Shown here: positions 6,186-33,098 of the stretch, piece after piece
Position numbering within the stretch: position 1 is the stretch's first letter
Layout: every line of letters starts with the position of its first letter
Assembly: GCA_026391755.1 (NCBI GenBank)
Contig: JAPLDN010000273.1
Span: 1 to 44,321, forward strand
Direction of reading: 5' to 3'
Length of the DNA: 44,321 nucleotides
From: Bacteroidota bacterium
Lineage (GTDB): Bacteria; Bacteroidota; Bacteroidia; Bacteroidales; FEN-979
Made by a program: the position numbers and the translations under genes
The notes under the pieces: model-generated
Database searches by the model: none
What the model saw: the letters and a program-made list of their open reading frames with translations, nothing else
Told to the model about the DNA's origin: nothing

Positions 6186-6234
6186 CATCTGAAATCTGAT
6201 GTCCGATATCTGATGTCGGATGTCAGATACCTGA
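6186..6234. repeat. Heptamer tandem array, about 7 units of TRTCNGA (catctga aatctga tgtccga tatctga tgtcgga tgtcaga tacctga)
   Basis: Read directly from the sequence. It spans the FecR stop to TonB-receptor start junction and contains the likely receptor ATG at 6213. Confidence 0.8.
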
Positions 6235-8789
6235 TTGTGATTCTTTTCCTTCTGGCAGAGTTCAGCCTGAATGCCCAGATCCTTGACAAACCCATCAGCA
6301 TACATATTAAAAACAAGCCCCTTCCCGAGGCCCTTAATGCCATATCCATTGAAGGCAACATCAATTTTTCTTATAATCCTCAAAGCATACCCGCCGATAA
6401 AACCGTAAGTTTAAATTGCCATAAGAAACCTCTGCGCGAGATCCTTGAAGCTATCTTAAAGCCTGTGGGTATCACGTTTTTTGAGCTTGAGGACCAGGTG
6501 GTGCTTAAACCGCCTGCTACCGGCCTCGTTCCACATCATGAAGAGCCTGCAAAAACGCCCCGGCATCTTACCGTCAGCGGTTATATCAGGGAAAAGAACA
6601 GCGGGGAAGCACTCATCGGGGCTAATGTTTACGCAAGCGGGACAAATTACGGCACCAGCACGAACTCGTATGGGTTTTATTCACTTACCCTTCCCGAAGG
6701 AAGCTATGTGCTGGATTATTCCTTCCTTGGCTTCAGGGAGATCAAAGAACCACTGGATTTAAGGTCTGACCAGCGTATAAGCAAAGAGATGGAAGAAGCC
6801 AGGCTTGTCATAAAAGAAGTCGAGGTAAAGCCAAAAGAAACGGGATCCGACATCCGGCGAAGCCAATTAAGCGATTTTAATTTTTCGAATAAAACCCTGG
6901 CCAGCCTGCCGGGGTTTGCCGGTACCCCCGATATCCTGAAAGCCCTTCAGGTTGTGCCAGGCATACGCTCCTACGGGGACGGCTCTTCGTTGTTCTATGT
7001 AAGAGGCGGCAACAGCGACCAGAACCTCTTACTGCTGGACGAAGCACCCATTTACAATCCCTCGCATCTCTTTGGATTTTTTTCGGCCCTCTCCCCCGAT
7101 GCGGTAAACGATATCCAGGTATACAAGGGCGATTTCCCTCCCCGCTTCGGAGGAAGGCTGAGTTCGGTTGTGGATGTGAAAGCCCGGGAAGGGAATATGA
7201 AACGCTTTGGCTTCAGCGGCAACCTGGGGCCTTATGCCTCCAATATTTCCATTGAAGGCCCTATCTGGAAAAATCACGCCTCCTTTTTTATCTCCGGCCG
7301 GCTGTCGACTCTCAACTGGTTGAATTACCTCCTGAACGACCAGCCCGGCTTCAATATCCAATTTTATGATATCAATGCCAAGCTGAACCTCATTGCAAAC
7401 GACAACAACAGGTTCTACCTCACCTTTTATACCGGCCGTGATGACTTTAACCGCATCAATACATCGGCCTACCCCACTTTCGGCATAAGCTGGAACAATA
7501 TCCTGGGAACAGCCCGCTGGAACCATGTCTTCAATAAAAAGCTTTTTTCAAACACAACCCTGAATTACAGCCGTTATAACTATTATCTTTATACAAACAG
7601 CAATCAGGATAATTTCTGGACTTCTTCCATTTCAAACTTCACCCTTAAATCAGATTTTACATGGTTCCTGAACTCCGGCAACACCTTGCGTGCAGGCATG
7701 GATGTGACGAATTACCAATCCAATCCGGGGAACCTTAACAAAGGGGCAGAAAAAAGCAAAACCTCGGCCGGCACCGTGGTACCACTTCCGCTCTGGCAGG
7801 ATTTCGGCTCCACAACCGTATTTGCTTTCGACGCCAATTACCAGCTCATCGATTCGGCGAAGTACAAGCAAAGCATCTGCTATTACACTTATTTCAGCCC
7901 GGAACCGAGGCTAAGCATTATTTACAATATCACCGAACGGACTTCCCTGAAGTTCGGATATTCCAGGAATACCCAGTTTATACAGCAGTTGTCGAACTCC
8001 ACCGGACCCTTTACATCACTGGATGTTTGGGCTCCCTGCGGGCCTAACATCCCTGCCCAGAAAGCCGACCAGTGGGCCCTCGGCTGTTACCAGAAGTTCT
8101 CCCGTGACAGGTTGTTGTTCAGCGCCGAGATCTTTTATAAAGCTTACACCGACCACCTGGACTATAAAGACCATGCCAACCTCTTGTACAATCCTCTTAT
8201 CGAAGGCGAACTCCGCTTCGGCAAAGCCTGGGCATACGGCCTTGAACTCATGCTCAGGAAATCGGAAGGCAGGCTGACTGGATGGATCTCTTACACCTGG
8301 TCCAGGTCGTTGGTACAAACCGATGCAGTCAACAACAGCGAGCCTTATCCCTCGAATTTCGACAGTCCGAACGATGTATGTATTAATGTATCATACGATA
8401 ATCACAGGCACTGGGCTTTTTCGGCCGTCTGGTATTATCATACCGGCAGCCCGGTAACTACACCCACGGGTTTTTATTATAATAACGGCTACTCGGTGCC
8501 TGTTTACGGAGCCAGGAATAACAGCAGGCTGCCCGATTATCACCGCCTCGACCTTTCGGTGACTTACCGCATCAGCAAACCCGAAAAACGTTTTCAGCAA
8601 AACGTAATTTTAACATTATACAATGCTTACGGAAGGTATAACCCGTTTTCTCTGAGTTTTAACCGCATTATGGACAGCAACGGGAATTTCGTGGTGCCCA
8701 CAAATATGCAGGGCGGGTACCAGCTTGTCCCGACCACACTTTCGGTTGCCGGGATCATTCCATCCATCAATTATCAATTTAAATTCTGA
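6213..8789 (+). CDS. TonB-dependent receptor with N-terminal STN signalling domain and carboxypeptidase-regulatory-like domain
   Basis: Signal peptide MSDVRYLIVILFLLAEFSLNAQ starts from the ATG at 6213. The track start at 6153 adds repeat-encoded residues. Domains seen: an STN-like segment (ISIHIKNKPLPEALNAI..), a CarbopepD_reg segment (TVSGYIREKNSGEALIGANVY..), a plug (..FYVRGGNSDQNLLLLDEAPIYNPSHLFGFFS..) and a C-terminal barrel ending ..INYQFKF. Confidence 0.85.
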   Translation: MSDVRYLIVILFLLAEFSLNAQILDKPISIHIKNKPLPEALNAISIEGNINFSYNPQSIPADKTVSLNCHKKPLREILEAILKPVGITFFELEDQVVLKPPATGLVPHHEEPAKTPRHLTVSGYIREKNSGEALIGANVYASGTNYGTSTNSYGFYSLTLPEGSYVLDYSFLGFREIKEPLDLRSDQRISKEMEEARLVIKEVEVKPKETGSDIRRSQLSDFNFSNKTLASLPGFAGTPDILKALQVVPGIRSYGDGSSLFYVRGGNSDQNLLLLDEAPIYNPSHLFGFFSALSPDAVNDIQVYKGDFPPRFGGRLSSVVDVKAREGNMKRFGFSGNLGPYASNISIEGPIWKNHASFFISGRLSTLNWLNYLLNDQPGFNIQFYDINAKLNLIANDNNRFYLTFYTGRDDFNRINTSAYPTFGISWNNILGTARWNHVFNKKLFSNTTLNYSRYNYYLYTNSNQDNFWTSSISNFTLKSDFTWFLNSGNTLRAGMDVTNYQSNPGNLNKGAEKSKTSAGTVVPLPLWQDFGSTTVFAFDANYQLIDSAKYKQSICYYTYFSPEPRLSIIYNITERTSLKFGYSRNTQFIQQLSNSTGPFTSLDVWAPCGPNIPAQKADQWALGCYQKFSRDRLLFSAEIFYKAYTDHLDYKDHANLLYNPLIEGELRFGKAWAYGLELMLRKSEGRLTGWISYTWSRSLVQTDAVNNSEPYPSNFDSPNDVCINVSYDNHRHWAFSAVWYYHTGSPVTTPTGFYYNNGYSVPVYGARNNSRLPDYHRLDLSVTYRISKPEKRFQQNVILTLYNAYGRYNPFSLSFNRIMDSNGNFVVPTNMQGGYQLVPTTLSVAGIIPSINYQFKF

Positions 8790-9610
8790 TGAAAAGGAAA
8801 TTGATAATACTGGTCTTGTGTATACTGATGGCAGCATGCGTCAAACAGACACAATGGAATGTGCCTGGCGTGAACCCAAACCTCATCGCGGTGGAAGGCA
8901 TACTTACTTCAGAGCGAAAGGCTCAGACCATTGTGATCAACCATCCTGTGAACGCCCTGAACGACCCTTCAGTACCTGTAAGCGGTGCAACAGTGCTGAT
9001 CTTCACCGCCGACTCAAACTGGACCCTTACCGAAACACCTGCAGGAAGCGGGAAGTATAAAACCCCTTCAACTTTTATAGCGCTTCTGAATAAGACATAT
9101 ACCCTGAATATCTATAGCGGGAGCTCGGTATATTCGGCCAAGGCATCAATGGTGCCAGGTACGACTTTCTCGCAGCTGACTTATGCGCAAAACGACAAGG
9201 ATACCCTTTACCATATAAATTATGTGGCAAGCGCCTTCAGCAGCACCCAGCCCGCTATGTGGGAAATACTGCTCGACTGGACCAAAGTACCCGGATATGA
9301 GCATGCCGATACAAGCAAATGCAAGGCCAGGATGCTGTTTTACACTCTCCCGACTTTGGATGTGAGCGAGGTCTTTGCCCCGGTGGTGGAGCAGGTCTCA
9401 TTCCCGAGGGGAACCAACATTACACAAAGAAGGTACTCCCTGGCTCCAGCTCATGCGGAATTTGTTCGTGAGATGCTTCTTGAAACCAGCTGGCAGGGGG
9501 GACTCTTCCCTACAGCCGCTGCGAATGTCATGACCAACCTGAGTGCCGGCGCAGTAGGTTTCTTCGGAGTTTGCTCGGTGAATGAGTTGTCGGTGGTTGT
9601 AGGAAAGTAA
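8789..9610 (+). CDS. DUF4249-like lipoprotein (usual partner of this TonB-receptor class)
   Basis: The TGATG overlap with the receptor stop suggests coupling. It has a lipoprotein signal (LCILMAAC) and the pattern ..VEGILTSE..VSGATVLIF..GSGKYKT..YTLNIY typical of DUF4249. Confidence 0.75.
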   Translation: MKRKLIILVLCILMAACVKQTQWNVPGVNPNLIAVEGILTSERKAQTIVINHPVNALNDPSVPVSGATVLIFTADSNWTLTETPAGSGKYKTPSTFIALLNKTYTLNIYSGSSVYSAKASMVPGTTFSQLTYAQNDKDTLYHINYVASAFSSTQPAMWEILLDWTKVPGYEHADTSKCKARMLFYTLPTLDVSEVFAPVVEQVSFPRGTNITQRRYSLAPAHAEFVREMLLETSWQGGLFPTAAANVMTNLSAGAVGFFGVCSVNELSVVVGK

Positions 9611-12459: not shown

Positions 12460-12529
12460 TCTTGGCTCTTGGCTCTTGGCTCATGACTCATGGCTCTTGG
12501 CTCTTGGTTTATGGTTTATGGCTCATGGT
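12460..12529. repeat. Heptamer tandem array, 10 units of TCWTGGY (tcttggc x3, tcatgac, tcatggc, tcttggc, tcttggt, ttatggt, ttatggc, tcatggt)
   Basis: Read directly from the sequence. It contains the permease stop codon (12509-12511) and ends 28 nt upstream of the TauE start. Confidence 0.85.
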
Positions 12530-14431
12530 TTCCGGGTGTCTGAGATGGCTGTGTTTACGGGAATACAGGATGTAGATCGTCATCCCTATGAGCAGCCATA
12601 CCAGGAAACGCATCCAGTTGGTAAAGCCGAGGTGGACCATAAGGAAGAGGCTGGAGAGAAGACCCAATAAAGGGATCAGTGAAAGCTTTTTTATAACGGC
12701 CATCAGGGTAAGGACGACAGCCGCCACAATGAAAATGAATAAGGGCAGGTCGTCCCGGTCAAAAGTGAAGTTAAACAGCCTGCCCAGGTCATTCAGTTCA
12801 GGAGGGTTACAGAAGTACAGGACCACAGCAACCCCGGCCCAGACGAGAGGGAGGGCGTAGCGGGAGTTGATGTATGGAACATGGAAGCCTTTGGTGGTGA
12901 CCTCGGATGCCGGATGTCGGATGTCGTATGTCGGATGCGGGATCTGGGATGCGGGATCCGGGATGCGGGATCCGGGATCCGGGATGCGGGATTCGGGATC
13001 TCTTTCATCCTGCATCTTGTATCCTGCATCCGATTCATCCTTTTCATCCCCGGAGTAACGAATAGTGCGGGCAAACTGGCCATCCCGGTCTCTTCTTCCC
13101 CTGGGGTTAAGAATAAGCACTCCTCCGCTGACGAGCACAAATGCAAACAACGTGCCTATACTCGTGAGATCGGTGACTTCGGTGAAGTTAATGAACAGGG
13201 AAGGGATGGCGACAAAGAGCCCTGCAACCACGGTTGCAAAAGCGGGAGTGCGGAATTTAGGGTGTATTTTCGAGAAGGCCTTTGGGAGAAGTCCGTCCCG
13301 GCTCATGCTCATCCAGATGCGGGGCTGGCCTACCTGGAATACCAGGATCACGCTGGCCATGGCGATGATGGCAGCCAGGGAGATAAATCCTGCAAACTTA
13401 CCCATATGAATGCGTTCGAACACATAGGCCAGGGGATCGCCAACACCCAGTTCAGAATAGTTCACCATCCCGGTAAGGACCAGGCTGATCAGTACGTATA
13501 AGATTGTTGTAATGATGAGGGAGTAAATAATAGCCCTTGGCAGGTCCCGCCTTGTATTCCTGCATTCTTCGGCTGTAGTCGAAATGGCGTCGAAGCCGAT
13601 ATAGGCAAAGAAGACGCCCGATACACCTTTGAGCACCCCGGTAAGTCCATGTGGAGAAAAGGGAGTCCAGTTTCCGGGTTTTATGTAAAATGATCCCACC
13701 CCTATAATGAGCAGCAGGACCACTACTTTAAGGATGACCATTGAATTCCCGGCAACCTTGGTTTCATATATCCCCACATAGACCAGCATCGAAATAAGCG
13801 CGACTATTGCAAATGCAGGGATATTGGCGATCAGGTGCACCCCTCCCAGCACTGGGGAATTTACCCAGGCCAGGTAGGATTTCTGGATTACGGGTGCCAG
13901 CTGGGCCAGGCTGCTGCCGTGGGCAATGGCTGCACTTCCGTCAAAATACCCTCTGAGGGCTGTAACGTAATCGGTAGAGATATATTCAGGTATATGGAGC
14001 CCCATCCCGCTCATCAGTCCGCAGAAATAATCAGACCAGGAAATAGCTACCGCGATATTCCCTATGGCATATTCAATGATAAGGTCCCAGCCAATGATCC
14101 AGGCGAACAGCTCGCCGAAGCTCGCATAGGCATAGGTGTATGCGCTGCCGCTCAGCGGGATCACCGATGCAAATTCAGCATAGCATAAAGCTGAAAAACC
14201 GCATGCTATTGCAGTGAAAATAAACAGAAGGGCAACGGCCGGCCCGCCTGATGCCGCCGCGCTGCCGATAGTCGCAAAAATTCCGGAACCTACAATGGCT
14301 GCAATACCTAATGCTGTGAGGTCAAATACCGTGAGACTGCGCCTGAGCCCTCCCGAATCGCGCTCATACCCGGCAGCATCGTTAAGGATCAGTCCTATAG
14401 GTTTCTTTCTGAAAAGGTCGGAAAAAGACAA
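12509..14431 (-). CDS. APC-superfamily amino-acid permease (CAT-like, with an AA_permease_C-type tail) carrying a repeat-encoded hydrophilic insert
   Basis: 640 aa. It has a 12-TM core (..GIAAIVGSGIFATIG.., ..FAYIGFDAISTTAEE..) and a C-terminal TM pair (..TNWMRFLVWLLIGMTIYILYSRKHS). The insert is encoded by the heptamer array at 12904-13050. The last ~7 codons lie in array 12460-12529. Confidence 0.8.
   Translation of the reverse strand: MSFSDLFRKKPIGLILNDAAGYERDSGGLRRSLTVFDLTALGIAAIVGSGIFATIGSAAASGGPAVALLFIFTAIACGFSALCYAEFASVIPLSGSAYTYAYASFGELFAWIIGWDLIIEYAIGNIAVAISWSDYFCGLMSGMGLHIPEYISTDYVTALRGYFDGSAAIAHGSSLAQLAPVIQKSYLAWVNSPVLGGVHLIANIPAFAIVALISMLVYVGIYETKVAGNSMVILKVVVLLLIIGVGSFYIKPGNWTPFSPHGLTGVLKGVSGVFFAYIGFDAISTTAEECRNTRRDLPRAIIYSLIITTILYVLISLVLTGMVNYSELGVGDPLAYVFERIHMGKFAGFISLAAIIAMASVILVFQVGQPRIWMSMSRDGLLPKAFSKIHPKFRTPAFATVVAGLFVAIPSLFINFTEVTDLTSIGTLFAFVLVSGGVLILNPRGRRDRDGQFARTIRYSGDEKDESDAGYKMQDERDPESRIPDPGSRIPDPASQIPHPTYDIRHPASEVTTKGFHVPYINSRYALPLVWAGVAVVLYFCNPPELNDLGRLFNFTFDRDDLPLFIFIVAAVVLTLMAVIKKLSLIPLLGLLSSLFLMVHLGFTNWMRFLVWLLIGMTIYILYSRKHSHLRHPETMSHKP
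12904..13050. repeat. Heptamer array inside a CDS: 14 forward units SGGATNY (12904-13001) plus about 6 inverted units (CATCCTG-type, 13005-13050)
   Basis: The units read cggatgc cggatgt cggatgt cgtatgt cggatgc gggatct gggatgc gggatcc gggatgc gggatcc gggatcc gggatgc gggattc gggatct, then tcatcctgcatcttgtatcctgcatccgattcatcc. Nine GGG tracts with 4-nt spacers lie at 12939-12997. Confidence 0.9.
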
Positions 14432-20094: not shown

Positions 20095-20110
20095 ATTTGT
20101 TTTGTTATTT

Positions 20111-20183
20111 CACTCGCATCTTCACACCGCCGCTGGGGTTTGCTGCGCTGCACCCAAGGCGGCTTGTGTGAAATGCTTCGCTC
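20111..20183. repeat. REP-like imperfect hairpin element, copy 1
   Basis: The sequence cactcgcatcttcacaccgccgctggggtttgctgcgctgcacccaaggcggcttgtgtgaaatgcttcgctc aligns end to end with 26863-26934. Its stems are GCAT.TTCACAC/GTGTGAA.ATGC and GCCGC/GCGGC. Confidence 0.8.
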
Positions 20184-20189
20184 ATAATA

Positions 20190-21410: not shown

Positions 21411-21449
21411 TTGTAGGTTTTATAATCATTAATACCCTGAATTCGCAAA

Positions 21450-21563
21450 TTTACGAAGTACGATTTACGATTTACGAAGAATTTGAAATCGTCATTCGTA
21501 ATTATTCGCATTATTGTTAATTTTATTGGTGCTCATTTCGGATTCGCCGAACGTCATTCGTAA
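21450..21563. repeat. Heptamer array (tttacga agtacga tttacga tttacga) with inverted partners, plus a 12-nt direct repeat cgtcattcgtaa x2
   Basis: The array is at 21450-21477. ACGATTT pairs with AAATCGT (21486-21492), and TTACGAA (21472-21478) pairs with TTCGTAA (21496-21502). The direct repeat cgtcattcgtaa occurs at 21490-21501 and 21552-21563. Confidence 0.7.
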
Positions 21564-22983: not shown

Positions 22984-23031
22984 TTATCCAGTTATCCAGT
23001 TATCCAGCTATCCAGCTATCCCGTTATCCCG
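22984..23031. repeat. Octamer tandem array, 6 units of YTATCCMG (ttatccag x3, ctatccag, ctatcccg, ttatcccg)
   Basis: It fills the whole 27-nt sufC-sufD spacer, contains the sufC stop (23008-23010), and ends 3 nt from the sufD ATG. Confidence 0.85.
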
Positions 23032-23778
23032 TTGTTCCTTCCTGATCCAGTCATACCCTTTTTCCTCGAGTTCCAGGGCGAGTTCTTTGGATCCGGATTT
23101 TACGATCTTCCCTTCGAACAACACATGCACGAAATCAGGGATTATATAATCTAAAAGCCTTTGATAATGTGTGATCACCATGAAAGCATTGTCCTTCGTA
23201 CGGAGTTTGTTCACCCCATTTGCCACAACGCGTAAAGCATCGATGTCGAGTCCCGAATCGGTTTCGTCAAGAATTGCCAGTGTAGGTTCCAGCATGGCCA
23301 TCTGGAAGATCTCGTTCTTCTTTTTCTCACCTCCCGAAAACCCTTCGTTCACCGAACGGTTCGCCAGGTTGGAAGTGAGTTCGACAAGCTTTTTCTTTTC
23401 TTCCATAAGTTTCAGGAAAGCCCCGCCTCCCAAAGGATCCAGCCCCTTAAACTTCCTTACCTCGTTAACGGCTGTGCGCATGAAATTTGTGATGCTCACG
23501 CCGGGAATCTCAACAGGGTACTGAAATCCCAGGAAAATGCCTTCCCTGGCCCTTTCTTCGACAGCCAGTTTCAGCAGGTTCCTGCCCTTATAAATGACCT
23601 CTCCCGAAGTAACATCAAACACTTCCCGGCCTGCAATCACCGAGGCAAGCGTGCTTTTCCCCGTTCCGTTCGGCCCCATAATTGCATGCACTTCCCCCTG
23701 GTTTACATCCAGGTCTATCCCTTTCAGAATTTCCTTTCCATTGATGGAAGCGTGCAGGTTTTTGATAGATAGTAGCAT
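23008..23778 (-). CDS. sufC: Fe-S cluster assembly ATPase SufC
   Basis: 256 aa with Walker A GPNGTGKST, the ABC signature FSGGEKKK and Walker B LAILDE. The last ~7 residues (RDNGIAG) are repeat-encoded. Confidence 0.95.
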   Translation of the reverse strand: MLLSIKNLHASINGKEILKGIDLDVNQGEVHAIMGPNGTGKSTLASVIAGREVFDVTSGEVIYKGRNLLKLAVEERAREGIFLGFQYPVEIPGVSITNFMRTAVNEVRKFKGLDPLGGGAFLKLMEEKKKLVELTSNLANRSVNEGFSGGEKKKNEIFQMAMLEPTLAILDETDSGLDIDALRVVANGVNKLRTKDNAFMVITHYQRLLDYIIPDFVHVLFEGKIVKSGSKELALELEEKGYDWIRKEQRDNGIAG

Positions 23779-23800: not shown

Positions 23801-23868
23801 CTGATAAATGGATAGCTTGATATCTGGATATCCAGTTATCGGCAGCGCACAGCGCTGCCTTATCCAAC
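23801..23868. repeat. Octamer array (NNGATANN x5, palindromic centre GGATATCC) with an embedded perfect GC hairpin
   Basis: The units read ctgataaa tggatagc ttgatatc tggatatc cagttatc. The hairpin GGCAGCGC-aca-GCGCTGCC (23841-23859) directly abuts the sufB stop (23860-23862). Confidence 0.75.
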
Positions 23869-25488: not shown

Positions 25489-25544
<56 letters not shown>

Positions 25545-26836: not shown

Positions 26837-26934
26837 CGCTCGCAATCTTGCACCGCGGCATCCGCTCGCAATCTTGCACCGCGGCTGGGGTTTGCTTCGC
26901 TGCACCCAAGGCCGCTTGTGCAAATTGCTTCGCT
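26837..26934. repeat. REP-like hairpin element, copy 2, with a tandemly duplicated 5-prime arm
   Basis: The 23-nt sequence cgctcgcaatcttgcaccgcggc occurs at 26837-26859 and again at 26863-26885. The second copy continues into the full hairpin homologous to 20111-20183. Confidence 0.8.
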
Positions 26935-30956: not shown

Positions 30957-31003
30957 TGGCGGATGGCAGATATCTGATATCTGATATCTGATATCAGATC
31001 ATT
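30955..31003. repeat. Heptamer tandem array, 7 units of GATRKCN (gatggcg gatggca gatatct x3 gatatca gatcatt)
   Basis: It occupies the whole gap between convergent uvrC and the VanZ gene. Both stop codons (30954-30956 and 30999-31001) touch or lie in the array. There are four GATATC palindromes. Confidence 0.85.
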
Positions 31004-31880: not shown

Positions 31881-31935
31881 GAATCCAGTTATCTAGTTAT
31901 CCAGTTATCTAGTTATCCAGTTATCCCGTATCCCG
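31881..31935. repeat. Octamer-to-heptamer tandem array (gaatccag ttatctag ttatccag ttatctag ttatccag ttatcccg tatcccg)
   Basis: It starts 2 nt downstream of the stop of the sprA C-terminal ORF (31938-31940) and lies about 95 nt upstream of gcvH. Confidence 0.85.
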
Positions 31936-31937
31936 TT

Positions 31938-33098
31938 TTACTGTGAAAGCGAGAACCTCAGCGCCAATCCGCCTTGTGTATTCGATGTACGGTACTGGTT
32001 CGAGACATAAGGTGTATTAATATCCTTCTTGAAATAGAACTGTATGTTGAACTTCTGGCTCAGGTTATAGTCTGCAGTAAAATTGATATTCAAAACCTGC
32101 TGCCCAATCGAGATCTGGTTGATTTCCTGGTCAACCCGGCGAAGTGTTGTGCGATTTTTTCGTATACTGAAATCCAGTTTAAGGTTCAGATCGCTTTTTG
32201 TCTTTGCTTTCTTCCCTCCTCCCAGTACACCTGAAAAATTCAGTTTTATCCCTTTGATCCTGTATCCGAGGCCAACAATGTATTCACTTGAAGCAACTTC
32301 TGTAAGCTGGTTATTTGAGAAGCTGAAGCTGAGAGCGCGGGAGCGGCGCATCTCAAAATTGGCAAGAAGGCTGTTTATGAAACCAAGGTCAATGCGGATA
32401 AGCGGACTGAATTGTTCATTAATGGTCATGACTCCTATCTGTCGTTCAGGAATGAAATTACCGGCATCATCCAGAACATTCGGATAGCCCCCGGCTTCTC
32501 CGTATTTGATGTTAGATACAAAATTGCTGACGGTATAGGTACAGATGTAAGCATGGGTAATGGTAAGTGTTCGCATGAATGTTTTTATCCAGGGCAGTTT
32601 GGCTAATCCGTCATATGTAATCCTCCAGTTCGGCAGGGGGATAGAAGGGAATGCGGTCAGATTGATCTTTGAAGGATTGCTGCCCTTATAAGCTGCAAGG
32701 AAAGCAGTGGTAAGAACGTCCTGATCAACAGGGCCATAGCCAACCGGGAAACCTGTGGAGTCAACCACCCCTTTGGAATTCGGATTCTGTGCAGCATACC
32801 GGTCGGCGATCTCTTTACGCATCTCTTTGAGTCTCTCAAAGGCAGGAGACACCCCGAATTTATCCTGTTTATCAAAGGCCGTGGCAATCATTATGGTCGA
32901 CATGGTAAAGGTTCCCATCTGTGTGGGAGAGAATGGGTAGAATCCGTCAAGCGAGGGGGACCATTTGTAAAATTCCTGCCTGGTAGTGGAAAAGTTTTTA
33001 ACAGCGTTGATCTCGATCCTGAAATCCTTGAATGGTTCCACCGATACGCTCGCAGTGAAATTCTCAGTAAACTTATTGATATATGCCGTATTCAGCAT
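31938..33098 (-). CDS. sprA: SprA (T9SS translocon) C-terminal segment, separated from the main ORF by a frameshift
   Basis: 386 aa of beta-strand-rich sequence ending ..GGLALRFSLSQ. It is contiguous with the 1971-aa ORF, and together they total about 2360 aa, the usual SprA/Sov size. Its frame is open from 33125. Confidence 0.75.
   Translation of the reverse strand: MLNTAYINKFTENFTASVSVEPFKDFRIEINAVKNFSTTRQEFYKWSPSLDGFYPFSPTQMGTFTMSTIMIATAFDKQDKFGVSPAFERLKEMRKEIADRYAAQNPNSKGVVDSTGFPVGYGPVDQDVLTTAFLAAYKGSNPSKINLTAFPSIPLPNWRITYDGLAKLPWIKTFMRTLTITHAYICTYTVSNFVSNIKYGEAGGYPNVLDDAGNFIPERQIGVMTINEQFSPLIRIDLGFINSLLANFEMRRSRALSFSFSNNQLTEVASSEYIVGLGYRIKGIKLNFSGVLGGGKKAKTKSDLNLKLDFSIRKNRTTLRRVDQEINQISIGQQVLNINFTADYNLSQKFNIQFYFKKDINTPYVSNQYRTSNTQGGLALRFSLSQ

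Follow-up and report, generated by a model that had tools for sequence, protein, structure and literature searches.

A variable heptanucleotide repeat array translated in frame within a predicted cytoplasmic loop of a Bacteroidota amino-acid permease

How can a tandem repeat with a 7-nucleotide (nt) unit persist inside the gene of a conserved membrane protein, where the gain or loss of a single unit shifts the reading frame? This question is raised by an array of heptamers at 12904-13050 in a 44,321-nt stretch of contig JAPLDN010000273.1 (the window; all coordinates are those of its + strand), which lies within the open reading frame (ORF) of an amino-acid permease. The most probable answer, to which we give a probability of roughly 0.8, is that the array is a hypervariable heptanucleotide simple sequence repeat (SSR) drawn from the intergenic repeat families of the lineage, that it sits in a permissive cytoplasmic loop of the permease, and that it is translated and filtered for reading frame. 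The features on which the argument turns are as follows (aa, amino acids; TM, transmembrane helix).

12904-13001, + strand: long arm of the array, 14 tandem heptamers, five CGGATGY-type units followed by nine GGGATSY units
13006-13050, + strand: short inverted arm, CATCCTG CATCTTG TATCCTG CATCCGA plus two degenerate units, ending at about 13050
12939-12997, + strand: potential G-quadruplex (G4) motif, (G3N4)8G3, nine GGG tracts with 4-nt spacers, on the template strand of the permease gene
12887-13108, - strand: segment encoding the hypervariable loop, aa 442-515 (74 aa), between 'VLIL' (end of TM10) and 'FHVPY', delimited by protein alignments
12509-14431, - strand: CAT/APC-type amino-acid permease gene, 640 aa, TTG start, identified from the ORF list, Pfam, GkApcT and synteny

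The long arm comprises CGGATGC CGGATGT CGGATGT CGTATGT CGGATGC GGGATCT GGGATGC (units 1-7) and GGGATCC GGGATGC GGGATCC GGGATCC GGGATGC GGGATTC GGGATCT (units 8-14), with seven different variants among its 14 units, and is separated from the inverted units by a gap of 4 nt. Tandem Repeats Finder (TRF) reported it at 12905-12999 with a period of 7, 13.6 copies, a score of 90 and 81% matches; periods of 14 and 21 scored higher (108 and 101, with 89-90% matches). The short arm was reported at 13006-13031 (period 7, 3.7 copies). First-order Markov resamples of the window yielded a mean of 0.67 TRF rows, as compared with 21 for the real window. With its head-to-tail unit in the 5-11 nt range and a length beyond chance, the array qualifies as a heptanucleotide long simple sequence repeat (LSSR). 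An original prediction, made from the letters of the window, had described 14 forward and about six inverted heptamers with three GGATCC sites, and was right in every detail (the sites are at 12954, 12968 and 12975). It had also called the locus an imperfect palindrome and the GGG tracts of the template strand a canonical G3N4 pattern. Both descriptions stand, with the arms being 71-80% complementary overall (78% for 12931-12957 against 13007-13033). Many further pairings are possible within the long arm, because GGATCC is itself palindromic.

The G4 motif is one of two occurrences of four G3 tracts with N1-7 spacers found by a regular-expression scan of the 44 kb, each of which lies within a heptamer array. 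Its mean G4Hunter score is moderate (1.14), and its G4 potential is plausible by likeness to the GGGNATC repeats of Xanthomonas and Nostoc. The + strand DNA of the array folds at -41.1 kcal/mol (z = -4.3), a hairpin that would compete with the G4. The permease mRNA carries the C-rich strand, (CCCGNAU)n, and its array segment folds at -61 kcal/mol (z = -2.5). A promoter and terminator scan gave no sense-strand terminator-like or promoter signal in the array, and Rfam at its gathering threshold gave no match anywhere in the window. All six reading frames of the array are free of stop codons.

The host protein matches AA_permease_2 (2.7e-49), AA_permease (5.5e-28) and AA_permease_C (1.4e-12) in Pfam, and its top solved-structure match is GkApcT (5oqt, E = 9.5e-120). 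The combination of core, AA_permease_C end and solved CAT homologue assigns it, at the level of sequence, to the CAT-like members of the APC superfamily; its syntenic orthologues are 573-640 aa long. The array lies 1,431 nt from the ORF start and 393 nt from the stop. In the permease frame it reads DPESRIPDPGSRIPDPASQIPHPTYDIRHPASE, a series of SRIPDPG-type heptapeptides: read from the minus strand, the long arm, (CCCGNAT)n / (CCGNCAT)n, gives DPESRIPDPGSRIPDPASQIPHPTYDIRHPAS and the short arm gives GDEKDESDAGYKMQDE. The earlier claim that the array is translated inside a single permease ORF, within a hydrophilic loop, is thereby confirmed.

The position proposed for that loop, between a 12-TM core and a final TM pair, was incorrect. 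In the alignment to GkApcT, query residues 202-442 correspond to GkApcT 158-398 and query residues 584-632 to GkApcT 414-462, which are the last two hydrophobic helices of GkApcT and align to the last two of the query. The query has 142 residues where GkApcT has about 15, made up of the 74-aa hydrophilic loop and two extra helices. The loop follows TM10, and the layout is 10 + 4, with the four predicted helices after the loop at 523-541, 559-580, 585-601 and 603-627. An AlphaFold model built from a 70-sequence alignment is poor (mean pLDDT 59.6) and was used for helix positions and loop disorder; it has coil at 460-521, pLDDT below 50 over most of 458-511, and four helices thereafter. The loop opens with the positive-rich stretch NPRGRRDRD. 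Taken with APC topology (N-terminus inside, even helix count), this Arg-rich start suggests that the loop is cytoplasmic. The extra helices at 523-541 and 559-580 align weakly to the TM9-10 region of GkApcT, and the helices of aa 516-580 (FHVPYINSRYALPLVWAGVAVVLYFCNPPELNDLGRLFNF...) resemble the permease's own TM9-10 unit at aa 394-441 (FRTPAFATVVAGLFVAIPSLFINFTEVTDLTSIGTLFAF...). This similarity suggests an old internal duplication, with the hypervariable loop at its junction.

Evidence for hypervariability comes from relatives. Protein searches recovered about 30 distinct close homologues, in metagenome-assembled genomes of Bacteroidota, that are 76-94% identical to the window permease when the loop is excluded and that share its neighbourhood (NAD-binding protein, permease, TauE, asparaginase). 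Loop lengths were taken from a protein alignment of 120 listed homologues, 33 near and 87 farther; this alignment was used in place of an earlier regular-expression search, which had located the loop in 8 of 80 distant loci. The loop spans 15-74 aa (median 39) in the 33 near relatives (70-100% core identity), the window's being the longest, and 13-30 aa (median 15) in the 87 farther homologues (63-69% core identity). Among the matches listed from a protein scan of genome contigs (at most 68% identity), none carried an array. A metagenome scan with the conserved flank GGCTTCCAYGTYCCNTAYATCARCTCCCG added five loci, which serve to document qualitative variants and are too few for population statistics.

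In the following, L and P numbers denote loci and proteins of these relatives. Locus L081, which is fully syntenic with the window and 85% identical to it in nt sequence upstream of the loop, carries the two-arm array shortened by three contiguous units (21 nt), and the order of sub-arrays (CCC-type then CCG-type units) is common to both. Against the 14 long-arm units of the window, L081 has about 10 and L091 about 8; L083, L084, L088 and L089 keep just 2 and are 105 nt shorter than the window. In L085/L090 and in L093 the opposite arm (GCAGGAT/ACAAGAT) is the expanded one, with about 12 and about 7 copies, respectively, and only 3-5 CCCGCAT-type units are present; L093 also has two further heptamer families. 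The L087 loop is filled by a different heptamer, of AGCGAAT type. Proteins P0022 (607 aa) and P0168 (614 aa), from one 90%-identity cluster, differ by one ASRIPHP, equivalent to 21 nt or three units. Copy number is therefore polymorphic at an orthologous locus, as expected of an LSSR, and the reading frame is kept in every loop variant recovered. The arrays are identical between independent assemblies in two cases (L081 = L082; L085 = L090). Compensating frameshifts were considered for the window and L081, where the sub-arrays differ by 2 and 1 units, and were set aside since one contiguous 21-nt indel across the sub-array boundary suffices. The original prediction had named alignment with orthologous permeases as a check on its claims; that alignment shows unit number differing among relatives, always in frame, with short loops in the farther homologues.

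Two of the relatives have something other than a heptamer array at this site. The L092 (P0007) and L086 (P0010) loops have no 7-nt periodicity, and instead contain a palindromic element of about 70 nt (…GCAATTTGCACAAGCGGCCTTGGGTGCAGCGAAGCAAACCCCAGCCGCGGTGCAAGATTGC…) that resembles repetitive extragenic palindromic (REP) elements and also occurs between genes of the window.

L092:170-260 and L086:4375-4500: REP-like element in the permease loop, in frame
~20105-20185, - strand: REP-like palindromic element, about 70 nt, core GCGGCCTTGGGTGCAGC...ACCCCAGCCGCGGTGCAA, between sufE and sufS
~26850-26930, - strand: copy of the REP-like element with its right end tandemly duplicated, after an MFS gene

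A 17-mer probe of the element matched the window twice, against 0.11 matches expected, and the element has no match in Rfam. Given that heptamer arrays and the REP-like element both occur in the loop, the loop accepts both classes of intergenic repeat, in frame. Across sister lineages, the fillings of the loop comprise heptamer arrays of at least three unit families, expansion of either arm of the palindrome, and the REP-like hairpin element.

The same kind of repeat pervades the spacers of this genome. The window has at least nine arrays of 7-8 nt units, nearly all at gene boundaries. Period-7/8 arrays number 2.0 per 10 kb in the window and, for the most part, 1.3-7.8 per 10 kb in the loci of close relatives (with none in two short contigs). 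A sample of 957 kb drawn from 80 other genomes, mostly of Bacteroidota, has 0.62 per 10 kb. The arrays outside the loop include the following.

6187-6234: ATCTGAT/GTCGGAT-type array at the junction of FecR and TonB-dependent receptor genes
12460-12531, - strand: second permease array, sense units GCCAAGA/GCCATGA/AACCATA, covering the last ~7 codons and the stop and filling the spacer to the TauE gene
21449-21477, 22984-23033, 23809-23832 and 25489-25541: arrays of 7- or 8-nt units in every suf-operon spacer examined, from sufS to upstream of sufB
25489-25541, + strand: the last of these, a CATCCYG/TATCCCG-family intergenic array between sufB and the MFS gene
30969-30999: GATATCT array, 4.4 copies, at a gene end
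31883-31937: ATCCAGTT array, 7 copies, directly downstream of the stop of ORF 31938-33098 (- strand)

The short arm of the loop array and the intergenic array at 25489-25541 are built from one unit family, and the loop array thus belongs to the genome's intergenic repeat families. The statement that no other array lies inside a long ORF is correct for the interior of ORFs and fails at gene termini, since other arrays overlap the stop codon of the permease, the tail of SufC and the N-terminus of the TonB-dependent receptor. True heptamer arrays deep in long ORFs were essentially confined to the loop in about 1.2 Mb of DNA, a comparison limited by the sampling of all these loci around the permease gene. 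When the loop peptide was compared by phmmer with 1.84 billion representatives, 185 matches were obtained at E <= 1e-3, with a median length of 183 aa; most are short ORFs of heptapeptide repeats, and a few are in long proteins. These short ORFs are arrays read through by gene callers.

Turnover is evident at the boundary arrays as well. The suf spacers of syntenic relatives have other units or copy numbers, such as GGGATAAC at 8.9 copies in L081 and AGCGAAA at 13.7 copies in L083; in the window, the final ~8 residues of SufC come from the array at 22984-23033. The tails of orthologous permeases differ in unit sequence, length and frame, and frameshifts in this C-terminal tail appear, from these sequences, to be tolerated. 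Divergent tails are seen between P0007 and P0164, between P0017 and P0159, and in L081 (...GNRKSSIVNRQS). The array at 6187-6234 falls within the called receptor N-terminus (MSDVRYL..., ahead of a signal-peptide-like stretch), and the same family is found at the same FecR/receptor place in L081 (18353-18422). L081, a 91%-identical relative, also has a 105-nt ATCTGAC/ATCTGCC array of 14 copies after dxs, at 8741-8845; in the window counterpart, dxs overlaps the neighbouring DUF7670-like ORF and there is no array. A GGAT/ATCC or GATATC core recurs in many of the units found in the window. The GGATC, GGATG and GATATC sites inside units might in principle serve as restriction-site decoys.

These observations can be combined into a mechanism. 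A two-armed, partly palindromic array of GGATSNN type, from families that fill the spacers and gene ends of an uncultured Bacteroidota lineage, would have come to occupy the cytoplasmic loop after TM10 of a 14-helix permease, a site that appears to tolerate almost any sequence and that directly precedes a helix pair with weak resemblance to a duplicate of TM9-10. The array can be translated because its unit is stop-free in any frame on both strands, and the predicted product is a disordered linker rich in Pro, Asp, Ser and Arg, in which the 7-nt period would appear as a 7-aa period. The array would lengthen, shorten and turn over at a high rate, with replication slippage or misalignment through hairpins as the most likely cause; periodicity is slightly stronger at 14 and 21 nt than at 7 nt, as would be expected of growth in larger steps. 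With the four helices downstream under purifying selection, only net changes that preserve the frame would persist, and those seen amount to 21 nt in each of the two comparisons between close relatives and to 105 nt between the window and L083. The peptide sequence itself is probably not under selection and a by-product of the DNA repeat, and the G4 and hairpin potential is intrinsic to the unit family rather than a gene-specific function.

Several points weigh against this interpretation. The species of the window is represented by one contig, and the AlphaFold model is poor enough that the topology rests on homology to GkApcT. The apparent neutrality of the loop sequence is read from its turnover. 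The loop of this clade is longer than that of distant relatives (median 39 vs 15 aa), and may therefore have a function that depends on length or disorder. Lastly, repeated hits on this one loop could result from selection alone or from targeting. That the locus represents a real 7-nt slippage on/off switch, or a dedicated repeat-generating or homing mechanism that targets structured DNA at this place, strikes us as distinctly unlikely; a targeting mechanism, if real, would make the loop a natural in-frame reporter of the repeat-generating or homing process.

The original prediction had proposed that the array could act as a contingency switch. For such a phase-variation locus, slippage of one or two heptamers would frameshift away the last four helices and further slippage would restore them, providing bet-hedging on amino-acid uptake. 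The array is indeed an SSR within an ORF, with 14 units of a length that is not a multiple of 3, and unit number differs among relatives. Moreover, when the gain or loss of one or two units (+/-1 or +/-2) was simulated, the protein ended at 536-550 aa and lost all four downstream helices, as had been anticipated for the gain or loss of one unit. A 450-aa allele that ends in the loop (P0162) was found in two samples (L094:661-2013; L095:446-1798). However, this allele arises from a junction to unrelated DNA past an AGCGAAA-type remnant, not from a unit slip, and reflects either a rearrangement at the repeat or a chimera that the repeat gave rise to during assembly. All of the ~30 distinct close homologues are in frame, and in both comparisons between close relatives the difference is exactly 21 nt. 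The close homologues include no out-of-frame allele, a weak test given that the long-array lineages are represented by only 1-2 contigs. The two out-of-frame tails had zero matches in 5.8 billion proteins, which also counts against a switch. Phase-variable genes typically have a long perfect tract; the array is interrupted, with 81% matches at period 7 (vs 89-90% at 14 and 21) and seven variants among 14 units, and these interruptions would damp single-unit slippage. Furthermore, sister lineages fill the same loop with DNA that is not an SSR, and the gene encodes a housekeeping-type transporter in a conserved syntenic block of a free-living lineage. With every natural variant in frame, differences of 21 nt and unmatched out-of-frame tails, a switch is unsupported on a thin sampling of long-array lineages, and we consider it unlikely.

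A functional nucleic-acid structure is another possibility, in which a template-strand G4 or a DNA or mRNA hairpin would regulate the permease or the downstream TauE and asparaginase genes through transcription, mRNA stability or translation. The (G3N4)8G3 motif, the folding energies of the + strand DNA (-41.1 kcal/mol, z = -4.3) and of the mRNA segment (-61 kcal/mol, z = -2.5), and the formation of G4 in vitro by the related GGGAATC repeats (PMC4692102) are all consistent with this idea. Nonetheless, the structure is not conserved: sister loci have just 2 units, an expansion of the opposite arm, heptamers of other kinds or another element altogether. Since the mRNA carries the C-rich strand, an RNA G4 is impossible; the sense strand has no terminator-like site, the G4Hunter score is just 1.14, and Rehm et al. 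found no regulatory role for analogous repeats (PMC4692102). A regulatory structure is accordingly unlikely. CsrA-like binding to GGA motifs in the CAGGAUG units was also considered, and was dropped, since nothing supports it and Bacteroidota are generally not known to carry CsrA. An error of short-read assembly in unit number or arm arrangement has three points in its favour: the allele of the window is known from one contig, the same repeat families occur elsewhere in the genome, and the join in L094/L095 is possibly a chimera at such a repeat. Against this, the whole structure is only ~147 nt long and in frame, the arrays of relatives are reproduced exactly in independent assemblies and samples, and the sub-array order is common to L081, such that an artefact is very unlikely. 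It had further been suggested that the array marks a former gene boundary and that the 640-aa ORF is a read-through fusion of two genes. The loop does hold sequence typical of spacers (heptamer arrays, and the REP-like element in relatives), but all 120 listed homologues are single ORFs, the 87 farther ones with loops of 13-30 aa and no arrays; GkApcT (5oqt) is continuous across the site, with its last two helices aligned to the last two of the query; and neither half alone would form a complete APC fold. The short-loop, single-ORF homologues together with the continuity of GkApcT refute the fusion, to which we assign almost no weight.

A translated SSR in a permissive loop provides a natural example of a non-triplet microsatellite living inside an essential-looking membrane-protein gene. 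Three conditions would enable this: a unit that is stop-free in all frames, a site in a disordered cytoplasmic loop, and selection that passes only 21-nt net changes. The post-TM10 loop of Bacteroidota CAT-like permeases would tolerate 15-74 residues of arbitrary sequence, which may be useful for engineering tags or insertions. For annotation, the heptapeptide-repeat segments and variable C-terminal tails of this lineage are best treated with caution, as by-products of DNA repeats rather than conserved protein motifs. The array is an unambiguous but unremarkable case of a known repeat class, nothing indicates that it works as a switch, and a new mechanism would be indicated only if read-level data revealed out-of-frame alleles.

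The permease itself has the APC/LeuT-type core and AA_permease_C end of GkApcT/SLC7 cationic amino-acid transporters (5oqt, 6f34, 9fqt); unlike in these solved homologues, its loop is encoded by a repeat. As for the repeat, the long SSRs of many prokaryotes are most often of the heptanucleotide class, according to Mrazek 2007 as cited in PMC4679880. SSRs with non-triplet units are described as depleted in coding regions (Mrazek 2007 as cited in PMC4679880; PMC4692102; PMC12699852), and Bacteroidota have a high density of short tandem repeats, coding sequences included (PMC12699852). The array resembles the heptanucleotide LSSR class of Mrazek, Guo and Shah 2007, as it is presented in PMC4679880 and PMC4692102, in its 5-11 nt unit, its length beyond chance and its lineage-specific abundance; a slippage origin has been proposed for this class (same sources). 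By that account non-triplet LSSRs are normally excluded from coding regions, whereas the permease array persists through a net length that is a multiple of 3.

Heptamer arrays of G3N4 form (GGGAATC, GGGGAYT) in Xanthomonas and Nostoc occur genome-wide, are mostly non-coding and in some cases are tandemly inverted; their number varies between close relatives, they form G4 in vitro, and no function has been found for them (PMC4692102). The permease array shares with these repeats of Rehm et al. 2015 (PMC4692102) a 7-nt unit composed of a G3 tract and a 4-nt spacer, tandem and tandemly inverted arrangements, at least four G3 tracts with short loops, many genomic copies that lie mostly at gene ends between co-oriented genes, and unit number and sequence that vary at the same locus. 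The Rehm repeats are rarer where the G-rich strand is coding, and in the permease array, too, the G-rich strand is the template. In contrast to those repeats, the array is in Bacteroidota, has a GGGAT(C/G)(C/T) unit and nine G-tracts (14 units) rather than the preferred four, and lies deep in a conserved ORF and is translated; its G4 is predicted from sequence scores. Its units (GGGATCC, GGGATGC, GGGATCT, GGGATTC) do not fit the consensus GGGNATC / GGGGAYT, and the related composition but different base order make it an analogue rather than a member of the Rehm family. A mainly non-coding location near gene ends is likewise a property of the sister arrays in the window and not of the loop copy.

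The contingency loci of Haemophilus and Neisseria (reviewed in PMC11868660) are similar in having a non-triplet SSR within an ORF, where a slip of one unit truncates the product. The permease array differs from them in its imperfect units, in having yielded no out-of-frame allele, in lying in a gene outside the surface and host-interaction classes, and in its host, an environmental bacterium of the Bacteroidota. A further comparison is offered by the TAACTGA heptamers of Beggiatoaceae, Cyanobacteria and five Bacteroidetes (MacGregor 2015, PMC4679880). These too form arrays at gene boundaries, some of which run over stop codons or appear in the protein as the heptapeptide repeat LSVISYQ, for the most part at its periphery. 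The unit is different, and TAACTGA repeats are found mainly just upstream of start codons, where a translational role has been suggested (PMC4679880). When TAACTGA repeats do fall within ORFs, they are terminal or in hypothetical proteins, whereas the permease array is in an internal loop of a polytopic transporter. Translated heptamer arrays are thus already known and widespread, and what is uncommon here is the site, an internal loop of a conserved polytopic transporter.

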